Positions 6,325 to 53,400 of a stretch of DNA of 64,000 nucleotides are shown here, in pieces (positions within the stretch are counted from its first letter, which is position 1; each line of letters opens with the position of its first letter). The notes under the pieces are model-generated. The model was given only the letters and a program-made list of their open reading frames with translations, was not told the DNA's origin and searched no databases. The stretch lies in the NCBI RefSeq assembly GCF_050320075.1, contig NZ_CP190018.1; one strand, written 5' to 3'. This stretch comes from Escherichia coli (GTDB taxonomy: Bacteria > Pseudomonadota > Gammaproteobacteria > Enterobacterales > Enterobacteriaceae). The translations under genes were made by a program, and so were the position numbers.

Positions 6325-9248
<2,924 letters not shown>

Positions 9249-33177: not shown

Positions 33178-33967
33178 CTTCGACTCCTTCCGGTTTAAAT
33201 GCGCGTGGAACAGTAATTTGATAATCCGGCTCCAGCCAGCCGCCGGGTATGATTTGCCGCTTTCCCGTACCTGTTTCTATACCGCTTTGATCAATATACT
33301 GAAAATAAGGGTGTCCATTACGCCGGGCAAGGTAAAGCATCACCCGGTTGGTTTTAACCGAATGGCTGGCGCGAAGCAGTGCCTGCAATTTGCGTGGGCT
33401 GAGAAGATTCAACCCCTGAAACAGAGCATCGGCATGTTCGAACGAGATTAACGAAGGAACGCCGCAGGCGATCTCATACGCGGCCAGTTCCGGAACACTG
33501 CCTGCTAACTGGCGGTCGCCAATTTTCAGTTCCGTAGTAAATGGCGTTACATCAGCGGTAAGGCCTGACGTATACAGCGTGACAAACGTTGCGGATTGTT
33601 CAAAGGCAGAAAACCATCCCGGCAGTTTGACGTAAGCCGGAAGCGCGAGCCAGACCTGCGGCTTACCCTGTTCGGTATAGTGCGCATGACCCTGAAGCGC
33701 AAGGCTGGTTAGCCCCGCCACCCGAACAGGCTTTTCCCACTGCGATTGCAGGCAGTAAACCGCATCCACCCAATCCGGTTCACGACCCGTCCGGCAGTAT
33801 ACGCCGTGAGCGATCCGCCTGAGCCAGCCATTCTTCACATAGAGATAAGAGAGCTTACGATCTATGCCGTTGCGGGTAAGCCATGACTGGAGCAGCACCT
33901 GGCCGGGTAGCGTGTGCTGCATCAGCCAGTTTAGATAGTTTGGCAACTGTCGCCTCTGAATAGACAT
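33164..33967 (-). CDS. AbiEi-family antitoxin / transcriptional regulator
   Basis: 267 aa, N-terminal winged-helix-like region; immediately upstream of and overlapping AbiEii. Confidence 0.8.
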   Translation of the reverse strand: MSIQRRQLPNYLNWLMQHTLPGQVLLQSWLTRNGIDRKLSYLYVKNGWLRRIAHGVYCRTGREPDWVDAVYCLQSQWEKPVRVAGLTSLALQGHAHYTEQGKPQVWLALPAYVKLPGWFSAFEQSATFVTLYTSGLTADVTPFTTELKIGDRQLAGSVPELAAYEIACGVPSLISFEHADALFQGLNLLSPRKLQALLRASHSVKTNRVMLYLARRNGHPYFQYIDQSGIETGTGKRQIIPGGWLEPDYQITVPRAFKPEGVEDGSA

Positions 33968-34261: not shown

Positions 34262-37200
34262 ATGACATATCAGGCAATTTTCACTGGCTGGGATGATCTG
34301 ACGATTGAAGACCTTCTGGTCGCTTACCGGAAAGCAAAAGCCGATAGCTTCTTTGAGAATACATTTCCTGTTGCTATCAAATTTGCCGAGTATGAGCAGG
34401 AATTACTTGAAAACCTGCAAAAACTCTTAGATCTTTTGCAGAGCGAAGATGGATTCAGTAGCAATAAGAAGTTGATTGGCAAATTTCGATTGTTACCGAA
34501 AAAATTAACCACAAAGAAAAAACATGAATCCCAAAATGGACACGTCCACTTTTCTAATCCTAAACGAGCAGCCGACCATTTATTTAATAATTTTGATCTG
34601 ATACCAGAGTTTCGTATTATTGGTGACTTCCCGGTTGATAGTCACATTATCTCTGCACTATGGATTAACATGGTCGGGCATAAATTTGATGCCAGCTTAG
34701 ATAACTGTTGCTATGGCGCGCGGCTAAAGCGTATTCGTAATGATGAATTATTTAGCAATGAGCAGGATAATCCATTCCATATCAGTGCCGTGGGTTCTTT
34801 TAGCCCCTACTTCCAGCCCTACCAAAAATGGCGTGGTGATGGCTTAAAAGCTATACGTGACGAGTTGGAAAAAGATCGTGACATTATCGCCGCCTCACTG
34901 GATTTAAAAAGTTACTATCATTTTATTGATCCACTGGCTATAACCTCTGATGATCTCTATAACACACTAAACATAAAACTGACTGAGGATGAAAAAGCGT
35001 TTACTGCACAGTTAGCAGTATTCTTAAAGCACTGGTCTGACGGCGCAGCGGCATTTGGAAAGAAAATAGCGTACAAAACACCTGTTATTAATGGTGGTCT
35101 GGTCATTGGATTAACAGCCAGTCGGATCATTTCAAATATATTGCTACACCATTGGGATAAATTAGTCATTGAAAAACTATCACCAATTCACTACGGTCGT
35201 TATGTCGATGATATGTTCCTTGTAATACGCGATACAGGGACAATTACTAATAATCACGAATTTATGTTATTGCTGCAAGATAGGCTTGGCAATGATTGCG
35301 TTTATTTGAAAAACGAGCAAAAACAAATATGGCAAATACAGCAGGGCGAGCATTTCCAGGGTAAGACCACCATCCAGTTACAATCCGATAAGCAAAAACT
35401 TTTCGTGCTTCAAGGGAGGGCTGGAATAGACCTGCTCGACAGTATCGAAAAGGAGATCTACGAGCTTTCTAGTGAACACCGCTTGATGCCTTCACCGGAT
35501 CAACTGGAACACTCCACCGCAGCTAAAGTCCTTTCCGCTGCCGGTAGTGTAGGTGAAAATGCCGATACTCTGCGCCGTGCGGATGGATTAACCATTCGTC
35601 GTTTGGGCTGGTCACTGCAATTACGCTACGTTGAAACACTGGCACGAGATCTGCCTCCAAGTGAATGGAAAGAACAGCGGGAAGAGTTTTATCAGTTTGC
35701 CTACAACCATATTCTTAGGGCTGATAATCTATTTGCACATTTTAGTTATCTGCCAAGGCTGCTTGGCTTTGCTATCAGTATGAATGAATGGCAGCACGCG
35801 GAAAAAATTGTACTTAAAGCTTACGAATCCATCAACCTGTTGGCATCGGTGATTACTTCAGGTAAGGAAGTGAATATAAATGGTTGCAAAACTCGAGCAG
35901 TAAATGATCTTTGGCGCTGTATAAAAGGCACATTAAGCTGGCTATTTGTTGATGCAGCGACACGATATTACAGTCCTGACAGATTATTTCTTGATAAACG
36001 TTCAAAGAAAGAAGAGTGCCTTGCGGATACATTTTTTAATCATATTTCACAAAGTCTGACGAATCTAAAGGATTTACTGGATCTTCGCTTTGATTCAGCA
36101 GATTTTTATTTAAAAGCGCCATTGGTAGCTCGAGCTGATTTAGCAAAGGAACCTTATAAACAGATCGTAAAGAGTCAGTCGGCAGAAAAACTTGTTAATC
36201 AGCGTGATAGTAAAAAAGAAGTTAAAATACTGAAATTAATGAGCGACTCATCGCTTATTGATATTGACGTTATTAAGCTATTTTTGAAATCAACCAAGAA
36301 TACCCGACTGGAAAAAGTGGCTAAAGGAAATCGTAAGAACGAAAGTTACCTACCTTACATTTTCCCTACACGTCCTTTAACACCCGCTGAAATATCAGAA
36401 CTGGCCCCCGAATGTGTTGGATTACCCTCCACATCCGACAAAAAACCAGATGAGAGACCGTCCACCATTTGGGCAAAATATACTCAAGCATTACGCGGAG
36501 TATGGATCAAACCGACGTTGCTAGCATCGGAGCAGGACTCAGATGAAGCGACAAAAAAAGCTCGGCCTAAGAAATTCATTCATATTGGCACAGACAGGAA
36601 ACATAAAGTTGTCGTTGCGCTAACCAGCATTAAAACAGAGGAGGACGACTGGGCTAAAATGGCCTGCAATAAATCTAACTTGTCCCGTTCAAGGTACCAG
36701 CGGATTTCTGAACTGGTTAATGCAACATTGAAACTATCTCCTAAACCTGATTATGTTTTATTCCCTGAGCTTTCAATCCCGTTACGCTGGGTTAACAGTA
36801 TTGCTGATCGTTTGAGTTCGGCGGGTATCAGTCTAATTGCGGGAACAGAATACCGCCACTTAGACGATAATCAACTGAAGAGTGAGGCCGTACTTGTCCT
36901 TTCAGATAACAGACTCGGCTATCCAGCGAGTGTCAAAATATGGCAACCCAAGCTGGAACCCGCCGTAGGTGAAGATGAGGCATTATTTTCAATTTATGGT
37001 AAGTCTTGGGATTCGACACTTAATGTTAAACAACGTAAGCCGGTATATATTCATCACGGCGTCAATTTTGGCGTTATGATTTGCTCTGAACTCCAGAATA
37101 GTAAAGCGAGGATCCGTTTTCAGGGCGCACTCGATGCATTAATGGTATTGAGCTGGAATAAAGATCTAGATACGTTTGCATCGTTGATTGAATCAGCAGC

Positions 37201-37471
37201 GCTGGATATTCATGCCTATACTATTTTAGTGAATAACCGAAAATACGGCGATAGTCGCGTACGTTCCCCGGCAAAAGAACCCTTTATGCGTGATATTGCT
37301 CGTGTGAAGGGCGGTGATAATGACTTTGTGGTCGCTGCAACGCTGGATATCGACTCGTTAAGGGCATTTCAGAGCAGGGCAAAACGCTGGCCTAAAGGCG
37401 GCGATAAATTCAAACCGTTACCTGAAGGATTCCAGTTGGCAAAGAACCGCAAAAAGCTACCGCCAAAATAA
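34262..37471 (+). CDS. reverse transcriptase fused to a C-terminal nitrilase (carbon-nitrogen hydrolase) domain; DRT type 1 / UG1-like defence RT
   Basis: 1069 aa. RT motif A ASLDLKSYYHFID, motif B GGLVIGLTASRIISNILL, motif C YGRYVDDMFLV (YxDD). C-terminal domain has nitrilase catalytic-triad contexts FPELSIP (Glu) and GVMICSE (Cys). AT-rich relative to flanks. Confidence 0.85.
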   Translation: MTYQAIFTGWDDLTIEDLLVAYRKAKADSFFENTFPVAIKFAEYEQELLENLQKLLDLLQSEDGFSSNKKLIGKFRLLPKKLTTKKKHESQNGHVHFSNPKRAADHLFNNFDLIPEFRIIGDFPVDSHIISALWINMVGHKFDASLDNCCYGARLKRIRNDELFSNEQDNPFHISAVGSFSPYFQPYQKWRGDGLKAIRDELEKDRDIIAASLDLKSYYHFIDPLAITSDDLYNTLNIKLTEDEKAFTAQLAVFLKHWSDGAAAFGKKIAYKTPVINGGLVIGLTASRIISNILLHHWDKLVIEKLSPIHYGRYVDDMFLVIRDTGTITNNHEFMLLLQDRLGNDCVYLKNEQKQIWQIQQGEHFQGKTTIQLQSDKQKLFVLQGRAGIDLLDSIEKEIYELSSEHRLMPSPDQLEHSTAAKVLSAAGSVGENADTLRRADGLTIRRLGWSLQLRYVETLARDLPPSEWKEQREEFYQFAYNHILRADNLFAHFSYLPRLLGFAISMNEWQHAEKIVLKAYESINLLASVITSGKEVNINGCKTRAVNDLWRCIKGTLSWLFVDAATRYYSPDRLFLDKRSKKEECLADTFFNHISQSLTNLKDLLDLRFDSADFYLKAPLVARADLAKEPYKQIVKSQSAEKLVNQRDSKKEVKILKLMSDSSLIDIDVIKLFLKSTKNTRLEKVAKGNRKNESYLPYIFPTRPLTPAEISELAPECVGLPSTSDKKPDERPSTIWAKYTQALRGVWIKPTLLASEQDSDEATKKARPKKFIHIGTDRKHKVVVALTSIKTEEDDWAKMACNKSNLSRSRYQRISELVNATLKLSPKPDYVLFPELSIPLRWVNSIADRLSSAGISLIAGTEYRHLDDNQLKSEAVLVLSDNRLGYPASVKIWQPKLEPAVGEDEALFSIYGKSWDSTLNVKQRKPVYIHHGVNFGVMICSELQNSKARIRFQGALDALMVLSWNKDLDTFASLIESAALDIHAYTILVNNRKYGDSRVRSPAKEPFMRDIARVKGGDNDFVVAATLDIDSLRAFQSRAKRWPKGGDKFKPLPEGFQLAKNRKKLPPK

Positions 37472-39142: not shown

Positions 39143-41476
39143 TCAGGTTGTTGCAGGGTCGTCACATTTTGGCAGCCAGTCGCCGTAGCTTTCCTCTTTC
39201 AGCGTCAGGTTGGTCTGTATCCCCTGTTTGGTATGGCGCTTCTCGTAATTCAGTCCGTATTCCTTCAGCATCACCGGCAGCCCCAGCCCGAACATTTTCA
39301 GACTGAGTACATTCCGGTAGCCGTTTGCCTCCATGTAGGCCAGATAGGCGTGATAGAGGTATTTACGGTAATTACGCGGGATGATACTGGCGTTCCCCAT
39401 ATACATGCCGCTGGTCTGCGGCAGGGTTTCCAGATAGCCGATAAAATCAAACGTCGGGTCGGCATCCCGTTTGATGTTCAGCGCCTCGTCTGAGTTCTGC
39501 TGGGACTGAAGCAGTGACCGGGCGAGCATCGGGTCGCTGAACTTCTGCATCAGGTGACGCACGATGACCGCCAGCTCGCGGGTGATTTTGTCCTTAAGCT
39601 GCGGGTCGCGCTCCTGCGGGGCTATCTGTTCCGGGAAGTGAATAATCACCCGCCGGCGTGACACGCCGCCGCTGCGGTCGGTGAAGCGCATCGGGTTATT
39701 GTTCACGGCCAGAATTACCGCCGGGATATGCGTGGAGTATGCATCCCGGTATTTCGGGTCAACGGACACCGCATCGCCGCCGGTGATGGCCTTGAGTCCG
39801 GCACCGTCGCCGCTCCATTTTTCCTGGTCCGGCAGGCGTATCAGTGAGAAGCCAGTTAACGCGGCACGTTCACGCGGGGATTCCAGCGTCTCGATGGTGG
39901 CCGACGTGGCGTTATCCTCCCCGGCCAGCAGGGTGGCTATTTCGGCCATGATACTTTTGCCGCTGCCGCCGGGACCGGTCACCTCCAGAAAGAGCTGCCA
40001 GTCGTAGCGGTTTGCCAGCACCATAAACAGTGCGGCCAGAATCACGTCGCGTTTTTCCGCACGGCCACCGGCGGCACGGTCAAGCCAGCGCCAGAACGCG
40101 GGGGCGTGGGTCTCCAGCGTTTCACCGTCCACCGGCGGGGTGAAATCCACATCGCACAGGGTGCGCATCCAGTGTGACGGACTGTGCGGGTGGAACGTGC
40201 CGTTCTGCGTGTCGAGCACGCCGTTACGAAAGCCAATCAGGCGGCGGGAGGGGGCTTCCTGCTGCGGAATAATCAGCTTCAGGGTGTCCACCACGGAGGC
40301 CACCTTCCCGGAGGAGAACGGCGCGCGCAGACGCTGAAACAGCCCGGCCACATCCCGGGCAAAGTCCTGTGGTGGCAGCACCTTCCAGACACCATTTTCA
40401 TAACGGGACAGAAGCTGGCCGTTGGCATCGACCGCGAGCGCCTCGCCGTAATGCTCATAGATACGCATGGCCTTTTCGCTGGTACTCATGGCGGAAAACT
40501 CCGCTTCGCTCATGGTGTCGAACGGGCTTTCAGCCGGTGGCCGGATGGCATCATAAATGGCCTTACGGGTGGCTTCCCCGCCGTACTGCGTGAAGGCATC
40601 ATTCCAGTCACCGAAGACCGGCGGCAGGGCAACAACGCCCTCACACGCATCTGCGGCTGCGGCGGCTTTTTTCTGGCCGTCACCGCTGAGGTCACGGTCT
40701 GCGGCAAGGACAATCTGACAGGCCGGATGCTTCTGCCGGGCAAGGCTGGCCAGAGAAAGGAGGTTCACGGAAGAAAGCGCCACCATCACCGTTTCACCGG
40801 TCAGGTGATGTACGGTAAGTGCGGTCGCGTATCCCTCCGCTATCCACAGACGTTTTCCGGCCTGATTCTGTCCTTCAAGGGTGTGACAGGTGCCCCTGAC
40901 CTGTCCGCCTTTCAGGGTGCGCTTACGGCCGTCAGCACTGATTAACTGAAGGTTAACCAGTTCGCCGCTGTCGTCATACAGTGGCACCACAAGGTCACCG
41001 GCACGCCAGCTCACGCCACCGGCTCTGTGTGTGCCGGTCAGCATCCGGCATTCCCGGCCGGGAAAGCCCTTGCGGGTCAGGTAGGCGTTACCGGTTCCGG
41101 GACGGGTTTTCGCCATCAGGGTTTGTGCCAGTGCGGCGGCGTTCTTCCGGGCAGCGTCTGTTTCAGCACCGGCGGCAGCCGTCACTGCCGGGTCAGCCGG
41201 GGGCAGGCTGCCGGTCACGGCAGCCACCTTTGCTGCCGCGTCGGACGGGGAAACACCAAACACCTTTTCAACCAGTTTCAGGCCGTCACCGGCACCACAC
41301 TGATTGCAGTACCAGGTGCCGCGCCCCTCCCTGTCATCAAAACGGAAGCGGTCACTCCCGCCACAGACCGGACAGGGCTGATGACGGTTTTTCAGCACCT
41401 GAATCCCCAGCGCCGGGAGAATACGCGGCCAGTGGCCGAGCGCATGGCTGACGGTGGCGGTTACGTTCATTTTCAT
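39143..41476 (-). CDS. alpha: P4 alpha-type primase-helicase
   Basis: 777 aa; N-terminal zinc-binding primase motif (CPVCGGSDRFRFDD...WYCNQCGAGDG), central and C-terminal helicase region; iterons on both sides. Confidence 0.9.
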   Translation of the reverse strand: MKMNVTATVSHALGHWPRILPALGIQVLKNRHQPCPVCGGSDRFRFDDREGRGTWYCNQCGAGDGLKLVEKVFGVSPSDAAAKVAAVTGSLPPADPAVTAAAGAETDAARKNAAALAQTLMAKTRPGTGNAYLTRKGFPGRECRMLTGTHRAGGVSWRAGDLVVPLYDDSGELVNLQLISADGRKRTLKGGQVRGTCHTLEGQNQAGKRLWIAEGYATALTVHHLTGETVMVALSSVNLLSLASLARQKHPACQIVLAADRDLSGDGQKKAAAAADACEGVVALPPVFGDWNDAFTQYGGEATRKAIYDAIRPPAESPFDTMSEAEFSAMSTSEKAMRIYEHYGEALAVDANGQLLSRYENGVWKVLPPQDFARDVAGLFQRLRAPFSSGKVASVVDTLKLIIPQQEAPSRRLIGFRNGVLDTQNGTFHPHSPSHWMRTLCDVDFTPPVDGETLETHAPAFWRWLDRAAGGRAEKRDVILAALFMVLANRYDWQLFLEVTGPGGSGKSIMAEIATLLAGEDNATSATIETLESPRERAALTGFSLIRLPDQEKWSGDGAGLKAITGGDAVSVDPKYRDAYSTHIPAVILAVNNNPMRFTDRSGGVSRRRVIIHFPEQIAPQERDPQLKDKITRELAVIVRHLMQKFSDPMLARSLLQSQQNSDEALNIKRDADPTFDFIGYLETLPQTSGMYMGNASIIPRNYRKYLYHAYLAYMEANGYRNVLSLKMFGLGLPVMLKEYGLNYEKRHTKQGIQTNLTLKEESYGDWLPKCDDPATT

Positions 41477-41490
41477 GGTGTTGTTCTCCT

Positions 41491-41811
41491 TCAGTGCAGT
41501 ACCGGCGCTTTTATGTGACGGGCACAGAGTTCATCCATCACAACCAGCCCGAGAAAGGACAGCGACGGCGCGGCCTTCAGGGGGCCGGATTCCATTAAAT
41601 CTTCCAGCAGGGCACAGGCTATCTGACGCCCTTTTTCCTCACCGTGCTGGCGCAGATAAAAGCCTTCCAGCTCAGCGGCGATGGCCGCCTCCAGTGATTC
41701 AAGGGTGAGATGCGGGTAGCGGTGCTGACGTTCGCACACGGTCAGCCAGGCACAGGCGACAGCGCGACGGTAAAGGGCTGCGCGTAAGACGGGCGGTAAG
41801 GGTGTTTTCAT
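41491..41811 (-). CDS. P4-family conserved hypothetical protein (106 aa)
   Basis: ORF directly upstream of alpha in the left operon. Confidence 0.55.
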
Positions 41812-41946
41812 TTGTTTTCCTCCCTGTGACAGATGACTGCATTCCGTGCCGGTTGCATTAACTGATAAGGCATATCTGCGTCTCCTGAAGACGTGCGTAT
41901 CCCTGCGCGAATACGCACATTTAATTTTTCGGGTGTCGTTTTTTAA

Positions 41947-42402
41947 TTACAGATAATTGCGGTAACTGTTATCCGGGGTGATTTCCGGGTCAGGCTCCGT
42001 GCGGGGAATTTCCCGCCATTCCCGCGCCACCGGTGCCGCCCGGCTGGCCGGAACAGTGTCCTGCGGGTAAATATCCAGATATTTCTCCCGCCATTTCTGT
42101 AATTCCGGGTCTCCGGCCATTTCTTTCAGTACCGCATGCCGGTTTACGGGGCTGCGTTTAAACAGGTCAGGACGGTCACAGGTAAATTCCCGCAGAAAAC
42201 GCCCCAGCGGGATGTCTGTGGTGCGCCCGTCAGCGAGGATACGCACAAGGATACTGAATTTACGGCGGTACGGGTTCCAGACAATGTCCGGGCAGCGGTA
42301 CGGCATTTCCCACGGAATACCGTCTTCCAGAATGCCGACCACGGCCACATCGGGAAAACCGGCAGAACGGTAAATCTCACCGGGCTGGGGAAAATCAAAC
42401 AT
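41947..42402 (-). CDS. P4-family conserved hypothetical protein (151 aa; P4 orf151-like position)
   Basis: ORF in the alpha operon; size and position as in P4. Confidence 0.55.
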   Translation of the reverse strand: MFDFPQPGEIYRSAGFPDVAVVGILEDGIPWEMPYRCPDIVWNPYRRKFSILVRILADGRTTDIPLGRFLREFTCDRPDLFKRSPVNRHAVLKEMAGDPELQKWREKYLDIYPQDTVPASRAAPVAREWREIPRTEPDPEITPDNSYRNYL

Positions 42403-42682
42403 GCGTCCTGTCTCCCCGGTCTTTCTGCTGGGCGAGAAAATCGCGGCACAGGCCTTTGGCTTTCAGTTCATTCAGCACAAAATCAATATCTTCATTCAGG
42501 TAGCTGAAAATATGCGGAATGTAGAGCTGATGCAGGCCGGAGAGTTCACGGTGAATCAAATCACCCCCAACAAACCGGGATACGGCGCTGGCGCGGTTGA
42601 GCTTATGGTAAGCCTCAATGCTGAGGTGTTCACGGGCGTCATGACGCGCTGAGACGGTCTGAGGGGCTTTTTTATTACGCAC
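42395..42682 (-). CDS. P4-family small protein with probable GTG start (95 aa; epsilon-like position)
   Basis: GGAGG RBS 6 nt upstream of GTG at 42682; ORF ends overlapping the orf151-like start; the 177-aa ORF in the track is probably an over-extension. Confidence 0.4.
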
Positions 42683-42875
42683 GGGACACCTCCACCACCG
42701 GCAGACGGGCAGCAAGGGAGAGCACATAGTCACGGACAAGGGAACGGCGGGCGCTGCGTTCATCACCGGCGACGGTGCGAAGCATACAGATACGGGGATG
42801 ACGATCTGCGCGACGGACAGCCGCAAACACAAAGACAAATTCAGGGTGTGAGGTGGTAAGGGTTGTAGCCATGAT
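42675..42875 (-). CDS. P4-family small hypothetical protein (66 aa, [26 protein letters not shown]...)
   Basis: Short ORF immediately downstream of the immunity-RNA region; stop overlaps the next start. Confidence 0.4.
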
Positions 42876-42883
42876 GGCAGCCT

Positions 42884-43136
42884 CCTTGAAGTAACAGTTA
42901 CAGCTACCACTGGAGTTCCTACGCTCATGGGTGGTAGCCCGGACGGGGGTAGGAATACCGGCCTTCAAGGAAACCGGCCAGCCCGAAGGCTGCCCCGCCC
43001 GGACCACCATTATCTGACAGAGGCTACGGTTTAAAAACCACAGCCAGAAAAACAGGTGTGCCGAAGCAACGACGTAAAAAAAGACGCATGGCGCGTCATA
43101 TGTCGCCTTGAAGTAACTCGGGTTCCTACGCCCGGC
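42884..43136 (-). ncRNA. P4-type RNA immunity region (CI-RNA-like seqB flanked by complementary seqA / seqC-like repeats)
   Basis: Direct repeats CCTTGAAGTAAC...GTTCCTACGC at 42884-42924 and 43106-43136, and between them (42949-42971) GGTAGGAATACCGGCCTTCAAGG, complementary to both; in the untranslated leader of the left operon. Confidence 0.5.
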
Positions 43137-43225
43137 TGCCGATTTTGCGGCAGCGGAAAAACTATATCCGCAAATGCCGGAAAAAGGCAAGCCAGAAAAA
43201 GGGACTTTTTGCAGAACAGGCATCA

Positions 43226-43492
43226 TCATGCGTCATACCCCCGTTGGCGTCCGGCAATGCGGCCGGCCATCCATGCGGTGACTTCAGAGTGCAGCCAGGC
43301 CACATTTTTACCGCCAAGACTCACCTGCGGCGGAAATTCCCCCTTACGGATGAGTTCATAGATGGTCGAGCGTGACAGGCCGCACAGGTGCATCACTTCC
43401 GGCAGACGTAAAAAACGCTCCTGCGTGATGTCCGGCAGCGGCATCAGTGGCGTCACAGGGGCGGGAGACGGGGAAGAAAAAACAGCTTGCAT
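43226..43492 (-). CDS. alpA: AlpA-family phage regulatory protein (small MerR-like HTH)
   Basis: [50 protein letters not shown] is the AlpA signature; true start may be the internal Met (43444). Confidence 0.85.
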
Positions 43493-43769
43493 CGGGCTAC
43501 CTCGTTAATGTCCATACAGCACCGGATAAGTCCGTCCGGCTTCTGGTAGCGCTTTATTTTGTGAATATTTTCAGCAGACGCAACAGGGGGAATTTGTTCC
43601 GGCAACCTTACAATGGCTGTGTGTTTTTTATCCATCTGGACTGGAAGGGTCTCAAAGGGTTCTGAAGGACCTGGAATTTTTTATAGTGAAATACAAATTG
43701 TTTTTTCTTATTTATTTCAGTGAATTAATAAAAATAAACAGTGATAAACAGCATAAAAAGCCCATCAAC

Positions 43770-43880
43770 GGGTGAACAGTGGTGAACAGACGGTGAACAG
43801 TCATTACTGCGATTGTTCACCCTTTAACTTACTGTATTACTTATCTTTTTTCTTATGGTGAACAGAGGTGAACAGTAAAA
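43770..43880. repeat. P4-type origin of replication: six GGTGAACA / TGTTCACC iterons
   Basis: GGTGAACAGTGGTGAACAGACGGTGAACAG (43771-43800), TGTTCACC (43815-43822), GGTGAACAGAGGTGAACAG (43858-43876), within AT-rich DNA between alpA and sid. Confidence 0.8.
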
Positions 43881-44043
43881 TATAAAAAAACAAACAGTAA
43901 GCCGGTTTTTCCTGCGACCTTTTCCTGGCTTGCCGGTCTGAGGATGAGTCTCCTGTGTCAGGGCTGGCACATCTGCAATGCGTCGTGTTGCTGTCCGGTG
44001 TACGTCACAATTTTCTTAACCTGAAGTGACGAGGAGCCGGAAA

Positions 44044-44778
44044 ATGTCTGACCACACTATCCCTGAATATCTGCAACCCGCACTGGCACAACTGGAAAAG
44101 GCCAGAGCCGCCCATCTTGAGAACGCCCGCCTGATGGATGAGACCGTCACGGCCATTGAACGGGCAGAGCAGGAAAAAAATGCGCTGGCGCAGGCCGACG
44201 GAAACGACGCTGACGACTGGCGCACGGCCTTTCGTGCAGCCGGTGGTGTCCTGAGCGACGAGCTGAAACAGCGCCACATTGAGCGCGTGGCACGCCGGGA
44301 GCTGGTACAGGAATATGACAATCTGGCCGTGGTGCTGAATTTCGAACGTGAACGCCTGAAAGGGGCGTGTGACAGCACGGCCACCGCCTACCGGAAGGCA
44401 CATCATCACCTTCTGAGTCTGTATGCAGAGCATGAGCTGGAACACGCCCTGAATGAAACCTGTGAGGCGCTTGTCCGGGCAATGCATCTGAGCATTCTGG
44501 TACAGGAAAATCCGCTCGCCAACACCACCGGCCATCAGGGCTACGTCGCACCCGATAAGGCTGTCATGCAGCAGGTGAAATCATCGCTGGAACAGAAAAT
44601 TAAACAGATGCAAATCAGCCTCAGCGGCGAGCCGGTTCTCCGGCTGACCGGACTGTCAGCGGCAACACTTCCGCACATGGATTATGAGGTGGCAGGCACA
44701 CCGGCACAGCGCAAGGTGTGGCAGGACAAAATAGACCAGCAGGGAGCAGAGCTTAAGGCCAGAGGACTGCTGTCATGA
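44044..44778 (+). CDS. sid: P4 Sid-type capsid size determination (external scaffold) protein
   Basis: 244 aa from the internal Met (MSDHTIPEYLQPALAQLEKARAAH...), coiled-coil rich; followed by delta and psu. Confidence 0.85.
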   Translation: MSDHTIPEYLQPALAQLEKARAAHLENARLMDETVTAIERAEQEKNALAQADGNDADDWRTAFRAAGGVLSDELKQRHIERVARRELVQEYDNLAVVLNFERERLKGACDSTATAYRKAHHHLLSLYAEHELEHALNETCEALVRAMHLSILVQENPLANTTGHQGYVAPDKAVMQQVKSSLEQKIKQMQISLSGEPVLRLTGLSAATLPHMDYEVAGTPAQRKVWQDKIDQQGAELKARGLLS

Positions 44779-45275
44779 TTTACTGCCCGTCGTGTGGACA
44801 TGTTGCTCACACCCGTCGCGCACATTTCATGGACGATGGCACCAAGATAATGATTGCACAGTGCCGGAATATTTATTGCTCTGCGACATTTGAAGCGAGT
44901 GAAAGCTTTTTCTCTGACAGTAAAGATTCAGGAATGGAATACATTTCAGGCAAACAGAGATACCGCGATTCACTGACGTCAGCCTCCGGCAGTATGAAAC
45001 GCCCGAAAAGAATGCTTGTTACCGGATATTGTTGTCGGAGATGTAAAGGCCTTGCACTGTCAAGAACATCGCGGCGTCTGTCTCAGGAAGTCACCGAGCG
45101 TTTTTATGTGTGCACGGATCGGGGCTGTGGTCTGGTGTTTAAAACGCTTCAGACCATCAACCGTTTCATTGTCCGCCCGGTCACGCCGGACGAACTGGCA
45201 GAACGCCTGCATGAAAAACAGGAACTGCCGCCAGTACGGTTAAAAACACAATCATATTCGCTGCGTCTGGAATGA
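44775..45275 (+). CDS. delta: P4 Delta-type late transcription activator (tandem Ogr-like zinc fingers)
   Basis: 166 aa; two CxxC...CxxC zinc-finger units (MIYCPSCGH...CRNIYC and YCCRRCKG...CTDRGC). Confidence 0.9.
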   Translation: MIYCPSCGHVAHTRRAHFMDDGTKIMIAQCRNIYCSATFEASESFFSDSKDSGMEYISGKQRYRDSLTSASGSMKRPKRMLVTGYCCRRCKGLALSRTSRRLSQEVTERFYVCTDRGCGLVFKTLQTINRFIVRPVTPDELAERLHEKQELPPVRLKTQSYSLRLE

Positions 45276-45348
45276 GGGCTGCCGGTTAACACCGGCCGTC
45301 GCCGCACACCGTATTTTTATTCTTCAGCATGATGAGAAAGAGATAACG

Positions 45349-45921
45349 ATGGAAAGCACAGCCTTACAGCAGGCCTTTGACACCTGTCAGAATAACAAAG
45401 CAGCATGGCTGCAACGCAAAAATGAGCTGGCAGCGGCCGAACAGGAATATCTGCGGCTTCTGTCAGGAGAAGGTAGAAACGTCAGTCGCCTGGACGAATT
45501 ACGCAATATTATCGAAGTCAGAAAATGGCAGGTGAATCAGGCTGCCGGTCGTTATATTCGTTCGCATGAAGCCGTTCAGCACATCAGCATCCGCGACCGG
45601 CTGAATGATTTTATGCAGCAGCACGGCACAGCACTGGCGGCCGCACTGGCACCGGAGCTGATGGGCTACAGTGAGCTGACGGCCATTGCCCGAAACTGTG
45701 CCATACAGCGTGCCACAGATGCCCTGCGTGAAGCCCTTCTGTCCTGGCTTGCGAAGGGGGAAAAAATTAATTATTCCGCACAGGATAGCGACATTTTAAC
45801 GACTATCGGATTCAGGCCTGACGCGGCTTCTGTGGATGACAGCCGTGAAAAATTCACCCCTGCGCAGAACATGATTTTTTCGCGTAAAAGTGCGCAACTG
45901 GCATCACGTCAGTCTGTGTAA
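45349..45921 (+). CDS. psu: P4 Psu-type polarity suppression / capsid decoration protein
   Basis: 190 aa; last gene of the sid-delta-psu operon, followed by cos. Confidence 0.85.
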   Translation: MESTALQQAFDTCQNNKAAWLQRKNELAAAEQEYLRLLSGEGRNVSRLDELRNIIEVRKWQVNQAAGRYIRSHEAVQHISIRDRLNDFMQQHGTALAAALAPELMGYSELTAIARNCAIQRATDALREALLSWLAKGEKINYSAQDSDILTTIGFRPDAASVDDSREKFTPAQNMIFSRKSAQLASRQSV

Positions 45922-46122: not shown

Positions 46123-47517
46123 TTATGATTTCATTTTATCTGCAATATCTTCTAAGGAATCAAAGAATGCTTTGACAAAGTTGTCTTTATTAACAGTAGT
46201 AAAGTTTTGATTGTAAAATCCTACACATGCAGAAAAAATTGCTCTGCAAGTTAGCTCATTATATTTAGATGAATATAATGGTTCGACTCCACGATACACG
46301 GACCAAGAACCATGAGCTATATCAGACCTAGTCTTATACATTTCCTGAGCCACTCTAGCCCATTTTTTTTCATCTTGATAATAAATAGAAACTAATGAAG
46401 AAACACGACTTACGAAGTTCTTTGTTGTAGATGAATCCTTTTTTTCGCTACTTAGACTAACCAGCCGTTCAAGAGCCGTTGTTAATTTTACTATACGAGA
46501 ACTTTCATCCTTATCCTGTTGTGCGCTACTAAATAAATAGATAGCATCAATTAGCCTGTCTGCAATTACAGAGTTTTCATGAGGTTCTATCGCCAACTCT
46601 ATTAACCGAGAAAGAACTAACCCTAAGTCAGATTTGTAATCATCTTCAAACTTATTCCAAAACTCACCGCTATTGGCTATAGTCCCTTTAGTTGAGTAAT
46701 GATAGTTAAACATTTCGTTTGGTTTCTTGGAAAGATAAAAGCCGTCATAATTTGGGTAAGGATCTGTTGATATACTTAAAAAGTATGGGGAGATATTATA
46801 GTGCACACCAAATAGCTGTAGTATCCCAACCACAAAACATGCAATATTTTTAGCGATTCTCTGCCTACTTAACTTAGAGCGTTTGCTAACAGGGATTTTT
46901 AGGTAGTGTTTATAATGAAATTTATGAGAAGAACAAAATTTCTTAGCTAAATCAAGTTGTTGCTCAGTAAAATCATCACTAATAGTTAAGTGCATTTTTT
47001 CTGCCGATATAATATCAACTCGGCCAATAGACATTATATCTCGTTCCAACCCGTGAGCTAAAATAGGATAATAAAAATCCTCTTCAGACATTTCTCTCCT
47101 TGTTAGTTTTAATGTTTTATTTAGGAGGATAGTACATCCACTCCTGTCGCAACTGCCGTTCTCAACCCAAATATGCATAAACAATATTTTCTTAAGATTA
47201 CTTAAAAATTCATCGGTAGTAACTAGCATTTCTAAGCGATTTGATTTTATAAATCTAGCCGAAATAGCATATAACTTCTCATAAGAGGCATATGATAGAT
47301 GAATTTGAGTTCTAGAAAGATCTGTTCTTCCTTTTATTAGTTCATATGGTGCATCTATGGTCATTCCCAATGAACCAAAATTACCATTATATTCTTTTTT
47401 GTAAAATTCCATAAAATTAGATGAGGATGTTAACTCTTTATTTATTCTAACAGCCTCATCAAGAATAAATTTAAAATCTTTAACGTCTTCCAAACTGGCA
47501 CTCATCATTTTCACCAT
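46123..47517 (-). CDS. uncharacterised 464-aa protein in the P4 psu-int hotspot; C-terminal HEPN-like Rx4H motif; candidate anti-phage effector
   Basis: Strongly AT-rich versus the GC-rich flanking P4 genes; sits between cos/psu and int; C-terminal region contains RSDIAHG (R-x4-H-G, as in HEPN RNases); no Walker or other obvious motif; start overlaps the int 3' end. Confidence 0.7.
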   Translation of the reverse strand: MVKMMSASLEDVKDFKFILDEAVRINKELTSSSNFMEFYKKEYNGNFGSLGMTIDAPYELIKGRTDLSRTQIHLSYASYEKLYAISARFIKSNRLEMLVTTDEFLSNLKKILFMHIWVENGSCDRSGCTILLNKTLKLTRREMSEEDFYYPILAHGLERDIMSIGRVDIISAEKMHLTISDDFTEQQLDLAKKFCSSHKFHYKHYLKIPVSKRSKLSRQRIAKNIACFVVGILQLFGVHYNISPYFLSISTDPYPNYDGFYLSKKPNEMFNYHYSTKGTIANSGEFWNKFEDDYKSDLGLVLSRLIELAIEPHENSVIADRLIDAIYLFSSAQQDKDESSRIVKLTTALERLVSLSSEKKDSSTTKNFVSRVSSLVSIYYQDEKKWARVAQEMYKTRSDIAHGSWSVYRGVEPLYSSKYNELTCRAIFSACVGFYNQNFTTVNKDNFVKAFFDSLEDIADKMKS

Positions 47518-48685
47518 TTAAATTAATAATAAAATCACTATACCACTGCATCATTTTCTTTCGATCTTCTATATACTGTGCATGATTATATACACCACGT
47601 ATCGTGTTTTTATCCACATGAGCCAACTGCATTTCAATCCAAGCAGTATTAAAACCATTTTCATGGAGTATTGTTGATAATGTATGCCTAAATCCATGTC
47701 CTGTAAGTTTTCCCGCATAGCCTATGCGTTTGATAAGTTGATTAACACTTGCCTCACTCATAGGTTTGTTTGGATCATTCCGTCCCGGGAAAACATAACG
47801 ATAATTTCCTGTCATAGATTTAAGTTCATTAAGAAAGCCTAATACCTGGGTCGATAAGGGGACTAGGTGCGGCCTACGCATTTTCATTTTTTCGGCAGGA
47901 ATTTCCCAAATAGCGTTGTCCAGATCAAACTCTTGCCATAATGCCGCTCGCAACTCGATAGTTCTAACCCCAGTAACCATCAATAATTTTGTGGCAATCT
48001 GAACAAGTCGGCTTCCTGCATAACTATCTAAAGCACGCAGAAAATCAGGTATCTCATCTGATTTTAAGAAAGGAAAATGATTTGATTTGTGTACTTCGAG
48101 GGCACTGGACAGATCTGCCGCAGGATTAAACTCTGCTCTTCCGGTAGCAATAGCATATCGAAAAACCTCTGAGCAACGTTGCCGCACTTTGCGCATTTTC
48201 TCCAATGCACCACGTTTCTCAATTTTACGCAGCACATTTAGCAATTCTAGCGGTTTAATTTCCCCTACAGGCCTCGTCCCTACATACGGAAAAATATCAT
48301 TTTGGAACGCCTCAATAATATCTGAGGCATACCCAGCAGACCATTTTGCCGACTTCATCTGATGCCACTCTCTGGCAATCTTTTCGAATGCGTTCTCAGA
48401 TTGAATTCGTAATGCTAATTTTTGTTCTTTTCGAACCTCACTAGGATTTTTTCCCTCGGCCACTATTTTTCTGGCCTCATCACGGCGGGCGCGAGCTTCA
48501 GCAAGTGTGATCGTTGGATAAACACCAAGCGAGATCATTTTAGGTTTACCTGCATAGCGATAACGAAATCGCCAGCTTTTACTTCCATTTGGCTCTACAA
48601 GTAAAGACAACCCTTGCCCATCCCCAAGTGTATAGGCTTTAGCTTCAGGTTTAGCACGGCGAATCTGCATATCATTTAGGGGCAT
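47480..48685 (-). CDS. int: P4-type tyrosine integrase
   Basis: 401 aa; N-terminal arm-binding region (MPLNDMQIRRAKPEAKAYTLGDGQGL), C-terminal catalytic region (HGFRHT...YNHAQY); start faces the tRNA fragment 165 bp away. Confidence 0.95.
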   Translation of the reverse strand: MPLNDMQIRRAKPEAKAYTLGDGQGLSLLVEPNGSKSWRFRYRYAGKPKMISLGVYPTITLAEARARRDEARKIVAEGKNPSEVRKEQKLALRIQSENAFEKIAREWHQMKSAKWSAGYASDIIEAFQNDIFPYVGTRPVGEIKPLELLNVLRKIEKRGALEKMRKVRQRCSEVFRYAIATGRAEFNPAADLSSALEVHKSNHFPFLKSDEIPDFLRALDSYAGSRLVQIATKLLMVTGVRTIELRAALWQEFDLDNAIWEIPAEKMKMRRPHLVPLSTQVLGFLNELKSMTGNYRYVFPGRNDPNKPMSEASVNQLIKRIGYAGKLTGHGFRHTLSTILHENGFNTAWIEMQLAHVDKNTIRGVYNHAQYIEDRKKMMQWYSDFIINLNGENDECQFGRR

Positions 48686-49126: not shown

Positions 49127-49429
49127 CTACGATGCAAGAATCCATACCGATAAGCATCCGATAATTGGGAAAGAAAAATCCAACAAACTTCCCACACCCC
49201 ACGCGCGCGGATCAAAACCGCCCCACCACGGCATATTCATACGCTTGCCATGCCCGAACATTTCAATCCAGCGATATTCTGCCTGGGTGTGTTCACGCGC
49301 AATGAAGAACGTACAACCGGCTATCGCACCGTAAGCCCAGTTTCCGGTAAAAAGACCAATCAGTAGCTGCGCAGCCACAGCACAAAGTGCATGAAGTAAG
49401 GGTGTTATATCCATTTTCATCCTACCCAA
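49127..49429 (-). CDS. hypothetical small membrane protein (100 aa) between the att core and oac
   Basis: ORF with two hydrophobic segments; function unknown. Confidence 0.4.
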   Translation of the reverse strand: MGRMKMDITPLLHALCAVAAQLLIGLFTGNWAYGAIAGCTFFIAREHTQAEYRWIEMFGHGKRMNMPWWGGFDPRAWGVGSLLDFSFPIIGCLSVWILAS

Positions 49430-49885
49430 TAAAACGGGGCGCTCGGCCCATTAATATTATTTAGACGCAAGCGCTGCCTCAATTGCAGATAACATTTGTC
49501 TTAATTCTGCGTTTTCTTCTTCCAGTGCTGTTATTCTGTCGTCTGACTCTCTGGCTACCTGAACAAGCAAGCCAGTAACACCAGAATAATCTACAGTGTA
49601 ATACCGTTCACCTTCTTCACCTAAAGGATGACAAAATCACATAAATAATTTAAAAATCATAGCATTAGATTACTTAATGATTAAATAATAGACTGCGAAA
49701 CGCGACAAAACACAACATATCCAGTCACTATGAATCAACTACTTAGATGGTATTAGTGACCTGTAACAGAGTATTAGCGCAAGGTGATTTTTTGTCTTCT
49801 TGCGCTAATTTTTTGTCAACGCACTGGGTTAGTTGAATTTACAACCATGCTCAGTTTGGTGATCTCTTTAGGTCGATTGTTATGG

Positions 49886-50926
49886 TTATGCTCTGCTTGA
49901 TTCAGTGATTTTGGAATCCTGCATTTTAGTAATCATACCCATAATTTTATGCCTAAGCTTTTCCATTGGGTTTTCGATTAGATAAAAACTTACCGCCCCA
50001 ACTAAGATTGATGCTACCATCGTTGCTATATACATATAGAAACTGATTCCTACGTACCACACACCCATTGCTAGAATCAGGAAGTGCCATAGGTATATAG
50101 AGAAGCTCCATTTACCAATGTAAGACATTAACGGTGTTGACAGAGCCCAAGCAAATACACCTTCTCCATAGCTCATTAGCAGAACAATGAGTCCAAATAT
50201 TGGCGCATAGAAAATAAATTTGTTGAGAACCCATCCATCAGTAAACCCACCAGTTAACTTCCACATAACTTTAGGCAGTGCAATAAGCATTGATACAATA
50301 AAGAACAGGAAGGCTATATCAGACAACTCTTGACCAATTTTAAGGAAATTATCGTGATAGAGAAATGCTGCAATCATTCCGCAAGCAAACAGTGGGAAAT
50401 ACCACATCACCATTCCGCCATACGCACTATCCATCGCAGGGTACAATCCCTGTAGCAATACAGCCAGTGCGAAAATAAGGAATGCCGCTGCTTTTCCATT
50501 GTACACTTTTTGAATTGCGACACCAGCATACGCAAAGAATGGAAGTATGAAGTAGAATTTATACTCAATTGGTATTGTCCAGAAATGAAGCACGGCCTCT
50601 TTCATCGTTATGATTGAGATTGCCGTATTCAAATCAAAATACCCAAAATATGAATACACGAGAACAGCTATTGCGAACACCGGAAGGATTCTCATTGTTC
50701 TTCCAAGGAAATAACTTAAAAGAGACCGCCAGGAAAATCCGGTAGAAATAAATCTACTGGTTAGCAAAAATGCGCTGAGAACAAAGAATATCCAAACGCC
50801 AAACTGTGAACTTCCACCAAGCATAACCTCATACTCATGAAAATATATTCCTGTAGCGTGGGCTATTATTACAAGGAATACCGCTATTGCCCTTAGTCCA
50901 TCAAGAGACTTGATTTTACCTTTCAT
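49886..50926 (-). CDS. acyltransferase-3 family O-antigen acetyltransferase (Oac-like serotype-conversion enzyme)
   Basis: Multi-pass membrane protein with N-terminal LDGLRAIAVFLVIIAH (acyltransferase-3 signature); AT-rich; directly downstream of the tailspike gene; start probably the internal Met. Confidence 0.8.
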   Translation of the reverse strand: MKGKIKSLDGLRAIAVFLVIIAHATGIYFHEYEVMLGGSSQFGVWIFFVLSAFLLTSRFISTGFSWRSLLSYFLGRTMRILPVFAIAVLVYSYFGYFDLNTAISIITMKEAVLHFWTIPIEYKFYFILPFFAYAGVAIQKVYNGKAAAFLIFALAVLLQGLYPAMDSAYGGMVMWYFPLFACGMIAAFLYHDNFLKIGQELSDIAFLFFIVSMLIALPKVMWKLTGGFTDGWVLNKFIFYAPIFGLIVLLMSYGEGVFAWALSTPLMSYIGKWSFSIYLWHFLILAMGVWYVGISFYMYIATMVASILVGAVSFYLIENPMEKLRHKIMGMITKMQDSKITESSRA

Positions 50927-51009
50927 TTCTTTCCCAGATATGGAGTGAACATCTGCGAAAATGTAGCACATTTCAAGGTAAACAAGAAGCGCATCCATGC
51001 GCATTTTCA

Positions 51010-52929
51010 TCACCCTGCCTTGGTGTATGTCCAGTTAAATGTTGTTGTTCCCTGGCTTGTGATGGTTACAATCCTTCCTGTCACTGTAAATGATATCAAC
51101 CCTCCTGACTTAAGCGGAGTTAAAGTAAGTGTTGTTCCGTCCCACATGGCAAGCTGAAGCGAAGAGAAATTTGTTCCACTGCTTTCTGCCCAAACGCTTA
51201 TCAGGTACATCCCTTGGCTATTTGGCAGTTCAAACAACGTAGTTGCTACGTTAGCTGCAACAGCCTGAGTTCCTTTCGCTGTGTACACTGCTGGCAACTG
51301 ATTACCTGCAGAGCTTCGTGATTCAACATATGAGCCTGAAGTTTGCGTCCCAGTTAATGAGCAGTCAGTAAATACTCCATTCCCTGTGCTGTAAGTTGAT
51401 ATTACAGGAGTCCCACCAGTCGGAGCCTTAAACCGGCATCCCTCAGCAATTATTTTTGCTGTTGAGTCTGTCAGCAATGTGTTTGGGTATCCAGAGCCAG
51501 TGTAGGTTATTGATTCGCTATCAAGGAAGCTATCGGTACTTGATTTTATGTTAACAATGCTTGTGCCTGTTGCAAAGATAAATGCTGCTGTCCCACTCCC
51601 CGTTGTTTGCATTGAGTTTCCATGCCCGGCCAATCCTGATATATGGGCAATAGTATCATTAAGTTTTATATACGACGCAGTAATTCCATTTGTATTTTTT
51701 ATTATATTAGACTCACCATCATACCCTGTAATAGTAAGACACTTACATCCAGAAAAATATAACCCTGAGGAATCAAATGTATATTGCGACCCGTCAACTG
51801 TGATCTGGTCTCCTGCACAGTTTATTAGCTGAGGAGACAGGCAATTTACAACATACCATGCCTGTGCTGCATCCAGCACATAACATGTATCCCACTGTAT
51901 TGTCGTTCCGTTCGCCTTATAGAAACCATGCGCAACTCTCCTCGCCCATACCTGGGTATACTTTGTTAGGTAATTTCCAGAGTCATCATATATGGCCCAC
52001 CATGCACCATCAACCTCAACATTTTTAATGTGCATAACGCCTGGTGAAGTAGTTCCTCCATCAATTAGAATGCCAATTTTACCATCATTGCCAGTAGGTG
52101 ATGTAGGGCGTCCTCCATCGTAAAAAATATAGACATTTTCAATATTTATTGTATTAAACGCTGCGTGGTAATGGAAACAAGCTATATTTCCTATTACTGC
52201 TATGAAAGTTTCCGGCCTATTTATGTTGCTGTTTGTTTCGCCATTTATTGTGCAGTTTGAATTCATCTCTATCGTTGCATTTACGAAGTAAGTTCCAGAT
52301 GTCAATAATACATTCCGCCCTGTATTAATTGCGGCCTGTATGCCTGCATAGTCAAGAGACTGAGTTAGTGATGTTACGAATGGATAAACAGCCTGCGCCG
52401 CTGATAGTGTGGAGAATTTCTCGCTGAGTGGATGCAGAGTTCCGTCAGCTGTTGCACCGAAATCCTTGGCTGAAATGAAGTTGGTATTTTTATCATGTTG
52501 AGTTAAAGCTATTGAGCCGATATATGGCTGCTTAACTGCAACTAGTGCATCTCCCATTCCATCAGCATCGCTTTCTAACTGCTGCTTAAACTGATCAGGG
52601 TCATACTTCAGCACATTAGGAAAATAGAACTGCTGTGCACCATACGCATCATATACAGCCATAGAATGGCCTTGCACAGTTACGAACTTGGCAATCTGTC
52701 CGTTATATACAGGGTAACCAGCGGCGTTAATGATGATTGGTTGCGAAACAGGAACGTGAGAGCCGTCTTCGTTCTCTACATAAACCTGAATCTGGTTTTC
52801 TGGATTTACTGGGTCCGTGTCAATTTTACCGATATAAATTTTGCCATTGGCAACCGCTTTAAAAGAACGCGCCATAGTGAAGAGTTGCGAAGGCATGCTT
52901 ACCACAACATTTGCGGTGATATCTGACAT
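51010..52929 (-). CDS. tailspike protein: P22-type head-binding N-terminal domain with a different, AT-rich receptor-binding body
   Basis: From the internal Met: [43 protein letters not shown]... closely resembles the P22 gp9 N-terminus; remainder is Ser/Thr/Gly/Asn-rich and AT-rich. Confidence 0.85.
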
Positions 52930-53017
52930 TTCATTGCTCCAGACGAATGATATGATGCAACCATGATGTGATTGCATACCGAAATGGTACTATTGAGTAT
53001 TTATCCAGTAGGTTACG

Positions 53018-53311
53018 ATGCCATTCCACCCAACTGGTGAGGCATCAAGGATGTACAGCAAATACGACGAGGCGCAGTTTCACTTGAGACTTCCGCATGA
53101 ACTCCACGCGAAAATTAAGCAGCGTGCGAAGATGAATAACAGGTCGCTGAACTCAGAGATAATTGCAGCGATTGAGGAATCATTGGATAAACAAAGCTCT
53201 GCATCAGTTTACATTGACGATGCAGAGCGTATGGCAGAACAACAATCTGATATGGTTAAGAAAATTGTCTTTGATACGCTCAAGAAGCTATATAAAAAAG
53301 ACAGCAGATAA
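53018..53311 (+). CDS. Mnt/Arc-like ribbon-helix-helix repressor
   Basis: Resembles P22 Mnt (…RSLNSEIIAAIEESL…DAERMAEQQSDMVKKIVFDTLKKLYKK); located between gene-16-like and tailspike as in the P22 immI region; start may be the internal Met (53051). Confidence 0.75.
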   Translation: MPFHPTGEASRMYSKYDEAQFHLRLPHELHAKIKQRAKMNNRSLNSEIIAAIEESLDKQSSASVYIDDAERMAEQQSDMVKKIVFDTLKKLYKKDSR

Positions 53312-53400
53312 CCATCCGTTACGGAGGATTTATGCACAGAGATATGCTGAATATTGCGTTCTACATATTTGGTTTTTGCACGTTCCTGGTGTTTGCGAAG

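Follow-up and report, generated by a model that had tools for sequence, protein, structure and literature searches.

That a phage recognises a sugar on the surface of its host and then masks it is well known from Sf6 (oac), BTP1 (gtrC) and P22 (gtrABC). Acetylation by Oac of Sf6 blocks the endorhamnosidase of Sf6 (PMC9558356), and in the Escherichia coli Lederbergvirus Hf4s a gtr seroconversion cluster protects the lysogens from re-adsorption. A comparable gene pair was analysed here in a stretch of E. coli DNA of 64,000 nucleotides (nt; assembly GCF_050320075.1, contig NZ_CP190018.1; the whole stretch is referred to as the window). It consists of a tailspike gene (51010–52929, minus strand; product of 639 amino acids (aa)) and, downstream on the same strand, an oac-like gene for a stand-alone acyltransferase-3 (AT3) membrane protein (49886–50926; 346 aa when read from the ATG at 50926). 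The interval 49886–52929 (minus strand) extends exactly from the stop codon of the acyltransferase open reading frame (ORF) to the start codon of the tailspike gene, and the pair forms the right-hand end of a P22-like (Lederbergvirus) prophage. What would be new in comparison with the systems named above is the proposed specificity for E. coli O2/O50 and the apparent exchange of the receptor-binding domain and the modifying gene as one unit.

The described systems share several traits with the window and differ from it in others. Sf6 (tailspike gene 14, endorhamnosidase; oac, gene 15) is likewise a P22-like podovirus with the same head-binding adaptor and a beta-helix body, it carries a stand-alone AT3 gene between the tailspike gene and attP/int, and its target is a rhamnose-rich O antigen, as would be the case for the window. 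Sf6 oac, however, is convergent with the tailspike gene, whereas the two window genes are co-oriented, lie 84 nt apart within one cassette and are therefore able to move as one piece; the receptor is the O antigen of S. flexneri for Sf6 and presumably that of E. coli O2/O50 for the window. Salmonella BTP1 (gtrC) and phages of the g341c/epsilon34 type (gene 15) are also lederbergviruses in which an O-antigen acetylase adjoins the tailspike gene, but GtrC of BTP1 is an AT3–SGNH fusion of 640 aa encoded convergently with the tailspike gene, while the AT3 protein of the window is devoid of the SGNH part. In P22 (gtrABC) and Hf4s (gtr cluster), the corresponding slot of the P22-like genome is filled by a seroconversion module; glucosylation is achieved there by three Gtr proteins, in contrast to the single acyltransferase gene of the window. 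The exchange of one tailspike body between morphotypes, behind different adaptors, is known from phages of the P22, Det7 and 9NA type; unlike in those cases, the window body travels with a receptor-modifying gene and a regulatory spacer. Joint exchange of these three elements was not found described in the literature for the present family; a literature search by protein accessions gave nothing, and one for phage 611R6 gave only a prophage survey.

According to the original prediction, the tailspike retains the P22-type N-terminal head-binding domain in front of a body that is foreign to P22 and rich in AT. The first two points were borne out. The adaptor (codons 1–113; 52591–52929, minus strand) matched Pfam Head_binding (PF09008) over residues 1–113 with E=1.9e-67; it aligned with the N-termini of P22, Sf6 and HK620-type tailspikes, and residues 1–118 were 84% identical to other E. 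coli P22-like tailspikes. When the Protein Data Bank (PDB) was searched by sequence, the P22 tailspike chains (2xc1, 8tvr, 5gai) matched residues 1–117 only and the Sf6 tailspike residues 1–166, and the tailspikes of LKA1 and phi297 gave short matches within residues 146–254. Since the P22 chains are confined to residues 1–117, the body is unrelated in sequence to the P22 body, and homology to the body of the P22 gp9 endorhamnosidase was not found in this search. The description as AT-rich stood in part: the GC content of the body (42.5%; 34.6% at third codon positions) is below that of the neighbouring ejection-protein genes (51–52%), but the wording was a mild overstatement, as the head-binding segment itself has 44%. 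The corresponding value for oac is 39.1%.

The remainder of the tailspike gene (codons 114–639 plus stop codon; 51010–52590, minus strand) is predicted to encode a neck, a right-handed beta-helix body and a C-terminal beta-sandwich. An AlphaFold (AF2) model of residues 110–639 was calculated with 41 sequences (pLDDT 87.7) and consists of a short helical neck, a long right-handed beta-helix (~206–526) and a beta-sandwich (534–637). When compared with the PDB by means of Foldseek, the model matched at probability 1.0 the solved tailspikes of phi297, LKA1, Sf6, HK620 and CBA120 (TSP2) as well as Klebsiella K2 depolymerases; the TM scores of these matches were low (0.2–0.43), so that they give the fold class only, and no specific relative, specificity or catalytic mechanism is transferable. 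According to the model, the body is thus a right-handed parallel beta-helix, though unrelated to the P22 body in sequence. The nearest proteins among sequenced phages are tailspike/lateral fibre proteins of Dhillonvirus-type coliphages (~40% identity). Conserved acidic residues of the family alignment, for example D265 (invariant) and E297 in the numbering of the 530-aa fragment (D374 and E406 in the full-length protein), are candidate catalytic residues. Neither the tailspike nor the AT3 protein gave a match in NCBIfam.

The presence of an acyltransferase-3 membrane protein gene immediately downstream of the tailspike gene, as originally predicted, was confirmed by profile searches on the same strand: Pfam Acyl_transf_3 (PF01757) matched residues 35–340 of the 375-aa ORF with 84.3 bits (gathering cut-off 31; E=1.1e-23), and PHROG 3333 ("O-acetyltransferase") matched with E=1e-37. 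An SGNH domain was not detected in the protein with Pfam, and it is accordingly of the stand-alone form. Hydropathy gave 9–10 segments, and the AF2 model (pLDDT 87) consists of helices throughout, about 10 of them long. The best structural match of this model, and the sole plausible one, was human HGSNAT, a transmembrane acetyl-CoA-dependent acetyltransferase (TM 0.53); its Foldseek E-value is not significant, nothing having been found at E≤0.001, and a PDB search with the protein sequence returned no match. The motifs R/K-X10-H (in the first transmembrane helix) and RxxR are essential in AT3 proteins (PMC9558356). Both are present, as R12-X10-H23 and R76-T-M-R79, and these four residues (R12, H23, R76, R79) do not vary in 27 homologues with identities as low as 28%. 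Purifying selection on the gene is strong (dN/dS 0.04 against the homologue of locus L021, with dS 0.39, unsaturated); for the tailspike body, dN/dS was not estimable because synonymous sites are saturated.

Close AT3 homologues are each located directly downstream of a tailspike gene with a body of the same family, and adaptor and phage type vary. With the tailspike body and AT3 protein of the window as reference, identities (body, AT3) are 74% and 88% in Enterobacter asburiae CP077411 (L004; T7-tail-fibre N-terminus), 74% and 96% in an IMG/VR locus (L022; Tail_spike_N), 70.5% and 68.5% in a siphovirus-like prophage by thrS of Citrobacter sp. Cf088 (L008; Tail_spike_N), 72% and 64% as well as 69% and 72% in two P22-like prophages of C. 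freundii (L104 and L105, respectively; Head_binding in both), and 46% and 96.5% in a further IMG/VR locus (L021; Tail_spike_N). When nucleotide identity was followed in a sliding manner, homology was found to begin at ~52550, just inside the joint of adaptor and body (52590), and to end at the oac stop codon or just before it. These boundaries are shared, and the exchanged unit therefore comprises body, spacer and oac (~49886–52590, 2.7 kb). Within the cassette, conservation is highest in the spacer together with the 5′ end of oac (identity 0.85–0.94 in L004, L021 and L022; 0.74–0.79 in L008). The comparison of these loci demonstrates, at the level of sequence, that tailspike body and AT3 gene have been co-inherited behind three types of adaptor and in three genera (E. 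coli, Citrobacter and Enterobacter).

Whether genes of the AT3 clade generally adjoin a tailspike gene was tested in 80 IMG/VR loci. Adjacency holds for the 6 AT3 relatives with at least 40% identity; below this value the surroundings become irregular, with mixed neighbours, other orientations and AT3–SGNH fusions, and the linkage is proposed for the close clade only. One such locus (L029, IMG/VR) has an AT3 gene of 38% identity (6001–6981, plus strand) that is divergent from, and 88 nt away from, a gene for a 740-aa tail fibre with a GDSL/SGNH esterase domain (3691–5913, minus strand), possibly a deacetylase next to an acetyltransferase.

The persistence of the pair might also be explained by hitch-hiking, the slot between tailspike gene and attP taking any cargo and the AT3 gene staying since adjacent genes are seldom recombined apart. 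Linkage is indeed incomplete. In L021 an AT3 protein of 96.5% identity is coupled with a body of only 46%, and in a related E. coli P22-like prophage with a body of 47% (L106, 7737–10304) the AT3 gene is replaced by genes for a reverse transcriptase (RVT_1) and an SMC/AAA ATPase, which look like retron-like defence cargo. Other P22-like prophages hold a UmuD-like gene plus an AT3 gene in the slot, and two E. coli prophages at argW (L005 and L006) have one identical AT3 protein, 44% identical to that of the window, with two different tailspikes, which share a C-terminal end but have no more than 40% mutual identity when compared at full length. Against hitch-hiking, synonymous sites between the cassettes are saturated or nearly so, over that depth the pair survived three or more exchanges of the adaptor and several of the integrase, all six relatives with bodies of 69–75% identity whose neighbourhoods were examined possess the AT3 gene, and the association with the O type of the host (see below) fits a receptor-linked function. 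Hitch-hiking is considered distinctly unlikely.

The spacer within the exchanged unit was defined by way of the acyltransferase start. The annotated (and longest) ORF has 374–375 aa, starts at 51010/51013 and overlaps the tailspike stop codon (TGATG at 51010–51012). This annotated start is probably too far upstream, since 26 homologues have lengths of 337–358 aa, and for 12 of these the alignment begins with the Met encoded at 50926 (MKGKIKSLDGLR...); the ATG at 50926, giving 346 aa, is probably the true start, and a Shine–Dalgarno-like GGGAAAG (50929–50935) lies ahead of it. The extra 84 nt between tailspike stop codon and this ATG are kept as DNA in related loci. Directly past the tailspike stop codon, a hairpin (GCGCA-UGGA-UGCGC) with a U-rich tail (50980–51002, minus strand) appeared terminator-like in the scan. 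Its folding energy is −7 kcal/mol in the window (no better than 19/200 shuffles) and −8.5 to −15 kcal/mol in related cassettes, and its stem shows compensatory changes (GCGCA/TGCGC in the window, GCGCC/GGCGC in L008 and L104); it is a probable intrinsic terminator of the late operon. Past the hairpin follows a conserved block (AATGTGcTACATT). Conservation among the cassettes points to an extended −10-like motif, TGcTACATT (TGnTACATT; 50960–50968, minus strand), the block AATGTGnTA being conserved in the 5 close cassettes aligned and in the spacer of L104. The motif was missed by a consensus sigma-70 scan because its −35 region is poor. From this arrangement we infer that the late operon would stop behind the tailspike gene, leaving the acyltransferase gene to a candidate promoter of its own in the lysogen.

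L104 (6921–8022) retains the hairpin and the −10-like block, and also an ATG followed by the codons for MNGKIKSLDG; the called gene begins 89 nt later, and the alignment of its product with the window AT3 protein starts only at residue 41 of the latter. This copy of the cassette may contain a frameshift or a sequencing error.

If the late operon were read through, the enzyme might instead act during lytic growth, either by rendering debris non-adsorbing, which would spare progeny from being lost on it, or by creating the epitope of the tailspike rather than masking it. Such a role would agree with the orientation of oac, which is that of the late operon, and with its position, as only 84 nt with a weak hairpin separate it from the tailspike gene; the modifying genes of Sf6 and BTP1, by contrast, are oriented convergently to their tailspike genes. 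The conserved terminator followed by the conserved −10-like block suggests separate transcription, however, the known precedents mask the receptor in lysogens, and degraded prophages that lack structural genes keep the cassette intact, which fits a benefit to the host. Participation in the lytic cycle appears very unlikely.

Among 5426 complete E. coli genomes, 7 contain the cassette (98–100% identity), as does the deposited prophage vB_EcoP-611R6. The carriers are always P22-like prophages, and these are integrated at four places in the chromosome: the ykg/pao region, adjacent to a P4-like satellite (window, Ec-U3 and SB0258h1), argW (FT130 and 611R6), the HK022 site torS-torT (PSJ-23 and EFF60) and the lambda site next to bioA-ybhB (MFDS1019527). 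Host genes that flank the HK022 or lambda attB come straight after oac in three genomes. Two of the prophages are badly degraded and have lost their structural genes, yet the tailspike gene and oac are both intact. The 4-kb stretch 49400–53400 of the window is 100% identical to the chromosome of E. coli YZLc1-3 (NZ_CP123240).

O antigens of the hosts were typed for E. coli and E. asburiae. All seven cassette-bearing E. coli genomes have an O2/O50 wzx/wzy cluster, compared with 132 of the 5426 complete genomes overall (Fisher's exact test, P=4e-12; P=3e-7 when only the four integration contexts are counted), and judging from differing protein accessions the O2/O50 clusters of these hosts comprise several allelic variants. 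O2 and O50 have a common rhamnose-rich main chain, the O2 unit containing three L-rhamnose and one GlcNAc residues, and O2 has an additional Fuc3NAc branch in comparison with O50 (PMC7685785, PMC5293828). The two differ by a single substitution in fdtB (PMC7685785), and the hosts were for this reason assigned to O2/O50 jointly. E. asburiae CP077411, which carries the related cassette L004, has a syntenic O2-like cluster in the order rmlBDA, fdtC, fdtB, wzx, GT4, rmlC, wzy, GT2, DUF1972, sulfatase, gnd; its Wzy and Wzx are 72% and 79% identical, respectively, to those of E. coli O2/O50, and the cluster proteins as a whole are 72–92% identical with the exception of the poorly conserved sulfatase. 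None of the O2 Wzy homologues listed was named as a Citrobacter sequence.

In one host O2/O50 cluster (L011, 9890–10370), an fdtC-like hexapeptide acetyltransferase was annotated by PGAP as two pseudogene fragments. The same pseudogene call occurs in all O2/O50 clusters examined; one frame is open over nearly all of the 480 nt, to the stop codon, and the call is probably an annotation artefact.

The association with a single type of O cluster also bears on the substrate of the enzyme. The AT3 protein might acylate another glycan, such as enterobacterial common antigen (ECA), capsule, colanic acid, peptidoglycan or periplasmic glucans, with a benefit unrelated to the receptor of the tailspike. 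Members of the family have many substrates, among them ECA, peptidoglycan, periplasmic glucans and other glycans (PMC9558356); identity to the proven O-antigen acetylases is low, and NCBIfam gave no specific assignment. An activity of this kind would leave unexplained the co-inheritance with one body family across three adaptors and three genera with common boundaries, and likewise the occurrence of one O-cluster type among the hosts, as ECA and peptidoglycan occur whatever the O type. Acylation of another glycan is judged unlikely.

The serotype conversion and superinfection exclusion put forward in the original prediction are supported by these comparisons, namely by the co-inheritance, the purifying selection (dN/dS 0.04), the O2/O50 association and the synteny of the E. 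asburiae cluster. We consider it likely that the cassette is a receptor module, in which the tailspike recognises the O2/O50 antigen, the prophage AT3 protein masks it and the lysogen thereby excludes superinfection. In such a module, the tailspike would bind, and probably cleave, the rhamnose-rich O2/O50 O polysaccharide, whereupon infection starts. In the lysogen, the AT3 gene would be transcribed separately, and its product would use cytoplasmic acetyl-CoA to acetylate this same O polysaccharide on the periplasmic side of the inner membrane. Once acetylated, the O antigen would be poorly accepted as a substrate by this tailspike and related ones; the lysogen would resist superinfection, and its O2 epitope would be altered. 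A wider proposal, to which we give a little less than even credence, is that of a self-contained "recognise and mask" cassette that tracks O2-type O antigen through Escherichia, Enterobacter and probably Citrobacter by means of interchangeable adaptors in podovirus- and siphovirus-type prophages, with about 5% of O2/O50 strains being acetylated.

Several observations weigh against the receptor module. Over 207 aa the AT3 protein is 25% identical to Sf6 Oac (pairwise E=2e-9), and it is ~23% identical to g341c and BTP1 GtrC (E=1e-6 to 1e-8), so that its relationship to the proven phage O-antigen acetylases is, as far as sequence can tell, homology at the family level only, in a family with the range of substrates cited above. 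The partners of the cassette are separated in L021 and L106. The hairpin is weak in the window copy, and no promoter was reported in the spacer by the consensus sigma-70 scan, the proposed promoter being a motif only. The seven E. coli hosts are phylogenetically non-independent, and the Citrobacter hosts lie outside the scope of the O-typing. An O-acetyl group on O2 or O50 is not mentioned in PMC7685785 and PMC5293828, the primary structural papers not being covered. The three other explanations are hard to reconcile with the common boundaries, with co-inheritance of such depth and with the O-type association, and are less likely than the receptor module.

The surroundings of the cassette agree with a P22-like prophage whose portal, capsid, gp4, gp10, needle and ejection-protein genes all point leftward on the minus strand. 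About 50 nt past the oac stop codon, the sequence search located the start of an HK022/lambda-type attP arm (49612–49835) with a sib/tI hairpin (~49774–49808), which is 87% identical to the HK022 region and 93.5% to the P22-like phage Gally. As this arm follows oac directly, oac occupies the classical cargo slot between tailspike gene and attP. A lambda attP arm had been considered as the identity of the sequence past oac and was dropped, the search placing the HK022-type attP/sib closest. The arm is present although the prophage is located neither at torS-torT nor at the lambda site, and it looks like the relic of an earlier integration module. Between it and the end of the prophage, annotation and search identified the 3′ fragment of a tail-fibre gene (pseudogene; 49457–49621, minus strand), which is labelled in NZ_CP123240 as an incomplete tail fiber domain protein and has 96.7% identity with the Tritos phage tail fibre gene. 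The last gene ahead of the integrase of the neighbouring satellite is a small membrane ORF of 95 aa (49127–49414, minus strand) that matched PHROG 1443 (phrog_1443; E=3.6e-54, function unknown) and had no match in Pfam, NCBIfam or PADLOC. The phrog_1443 gene is also found between oac and intS at argW in FT130 and 611R6, and it could be a further lysogeny cargo gene. On the other side of the cassette, a Mnt/Arc-type repressor gene (53018–53311, plus strand) stands alone upstream of the tailspike gene; ant and arc of vB_EcoP-611R6 are missing in the window, and the immI region is therefore reduced.

Further to the left in the window, the integrase gene of the P4-like satellite (47480–48685, minus strand) is overlapped at its 3′ end by a gene for a 464-aa protein (46123–47517, minus strand; GC 33%), and the psu, ogr/delta and primase-helicase genes of the satellite follow at ~39143–45921. 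The 464-aa protein is labelled as a HEPN-domain protein by PGAP and occupies the usual defence-cargo position of P4-like satellites; it gave no match in the Pfam, NCBIfam, PHROG and PADLOC scans. To the left of the satellite, a gene for a reverse transcriptase of 1069 aa (34262–37471, plus strand) matched the PADLOC DRT model RT_UG5-nitrilase end to end (E=0), and it is adjoined by an AbiEi/AbiEii pair (32257–33946, minus strand).

O2 is a component of multivalent O-antigen vaccines. It is also a major serogroup of extra-intestinal pathogenic and avian pathogenic E. coli (PMC5293828). If the wider proposal holds, an O-acetylated variant of O2 that is outside the O-antigen scheme would be displayed by about 5% of the E. 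coli strains with O2/O50 (7 of 132 complete genomes), with consequences for O2 serotyping, for O2-containing glycoconjugate vaccines against extra-intestinal pathogenic strains and for the choice of phages against O2 strains. A prophage acetyltransferase specific for O2/O50 would mean hidden antigenic heterogeneity and a changed sensitivity to O-antigen-dependent phages, and the locus would provide a candidate O2-specific tailspike for typing or depolymerase use together with the matched acetylase. For the phages themselves, the shared boundaries show that a receptor-binding domain and a probable masking gene can be swapped as a unit between unrelated phage types, which helps to predict host range and superinfection immunity from prophage sequence.

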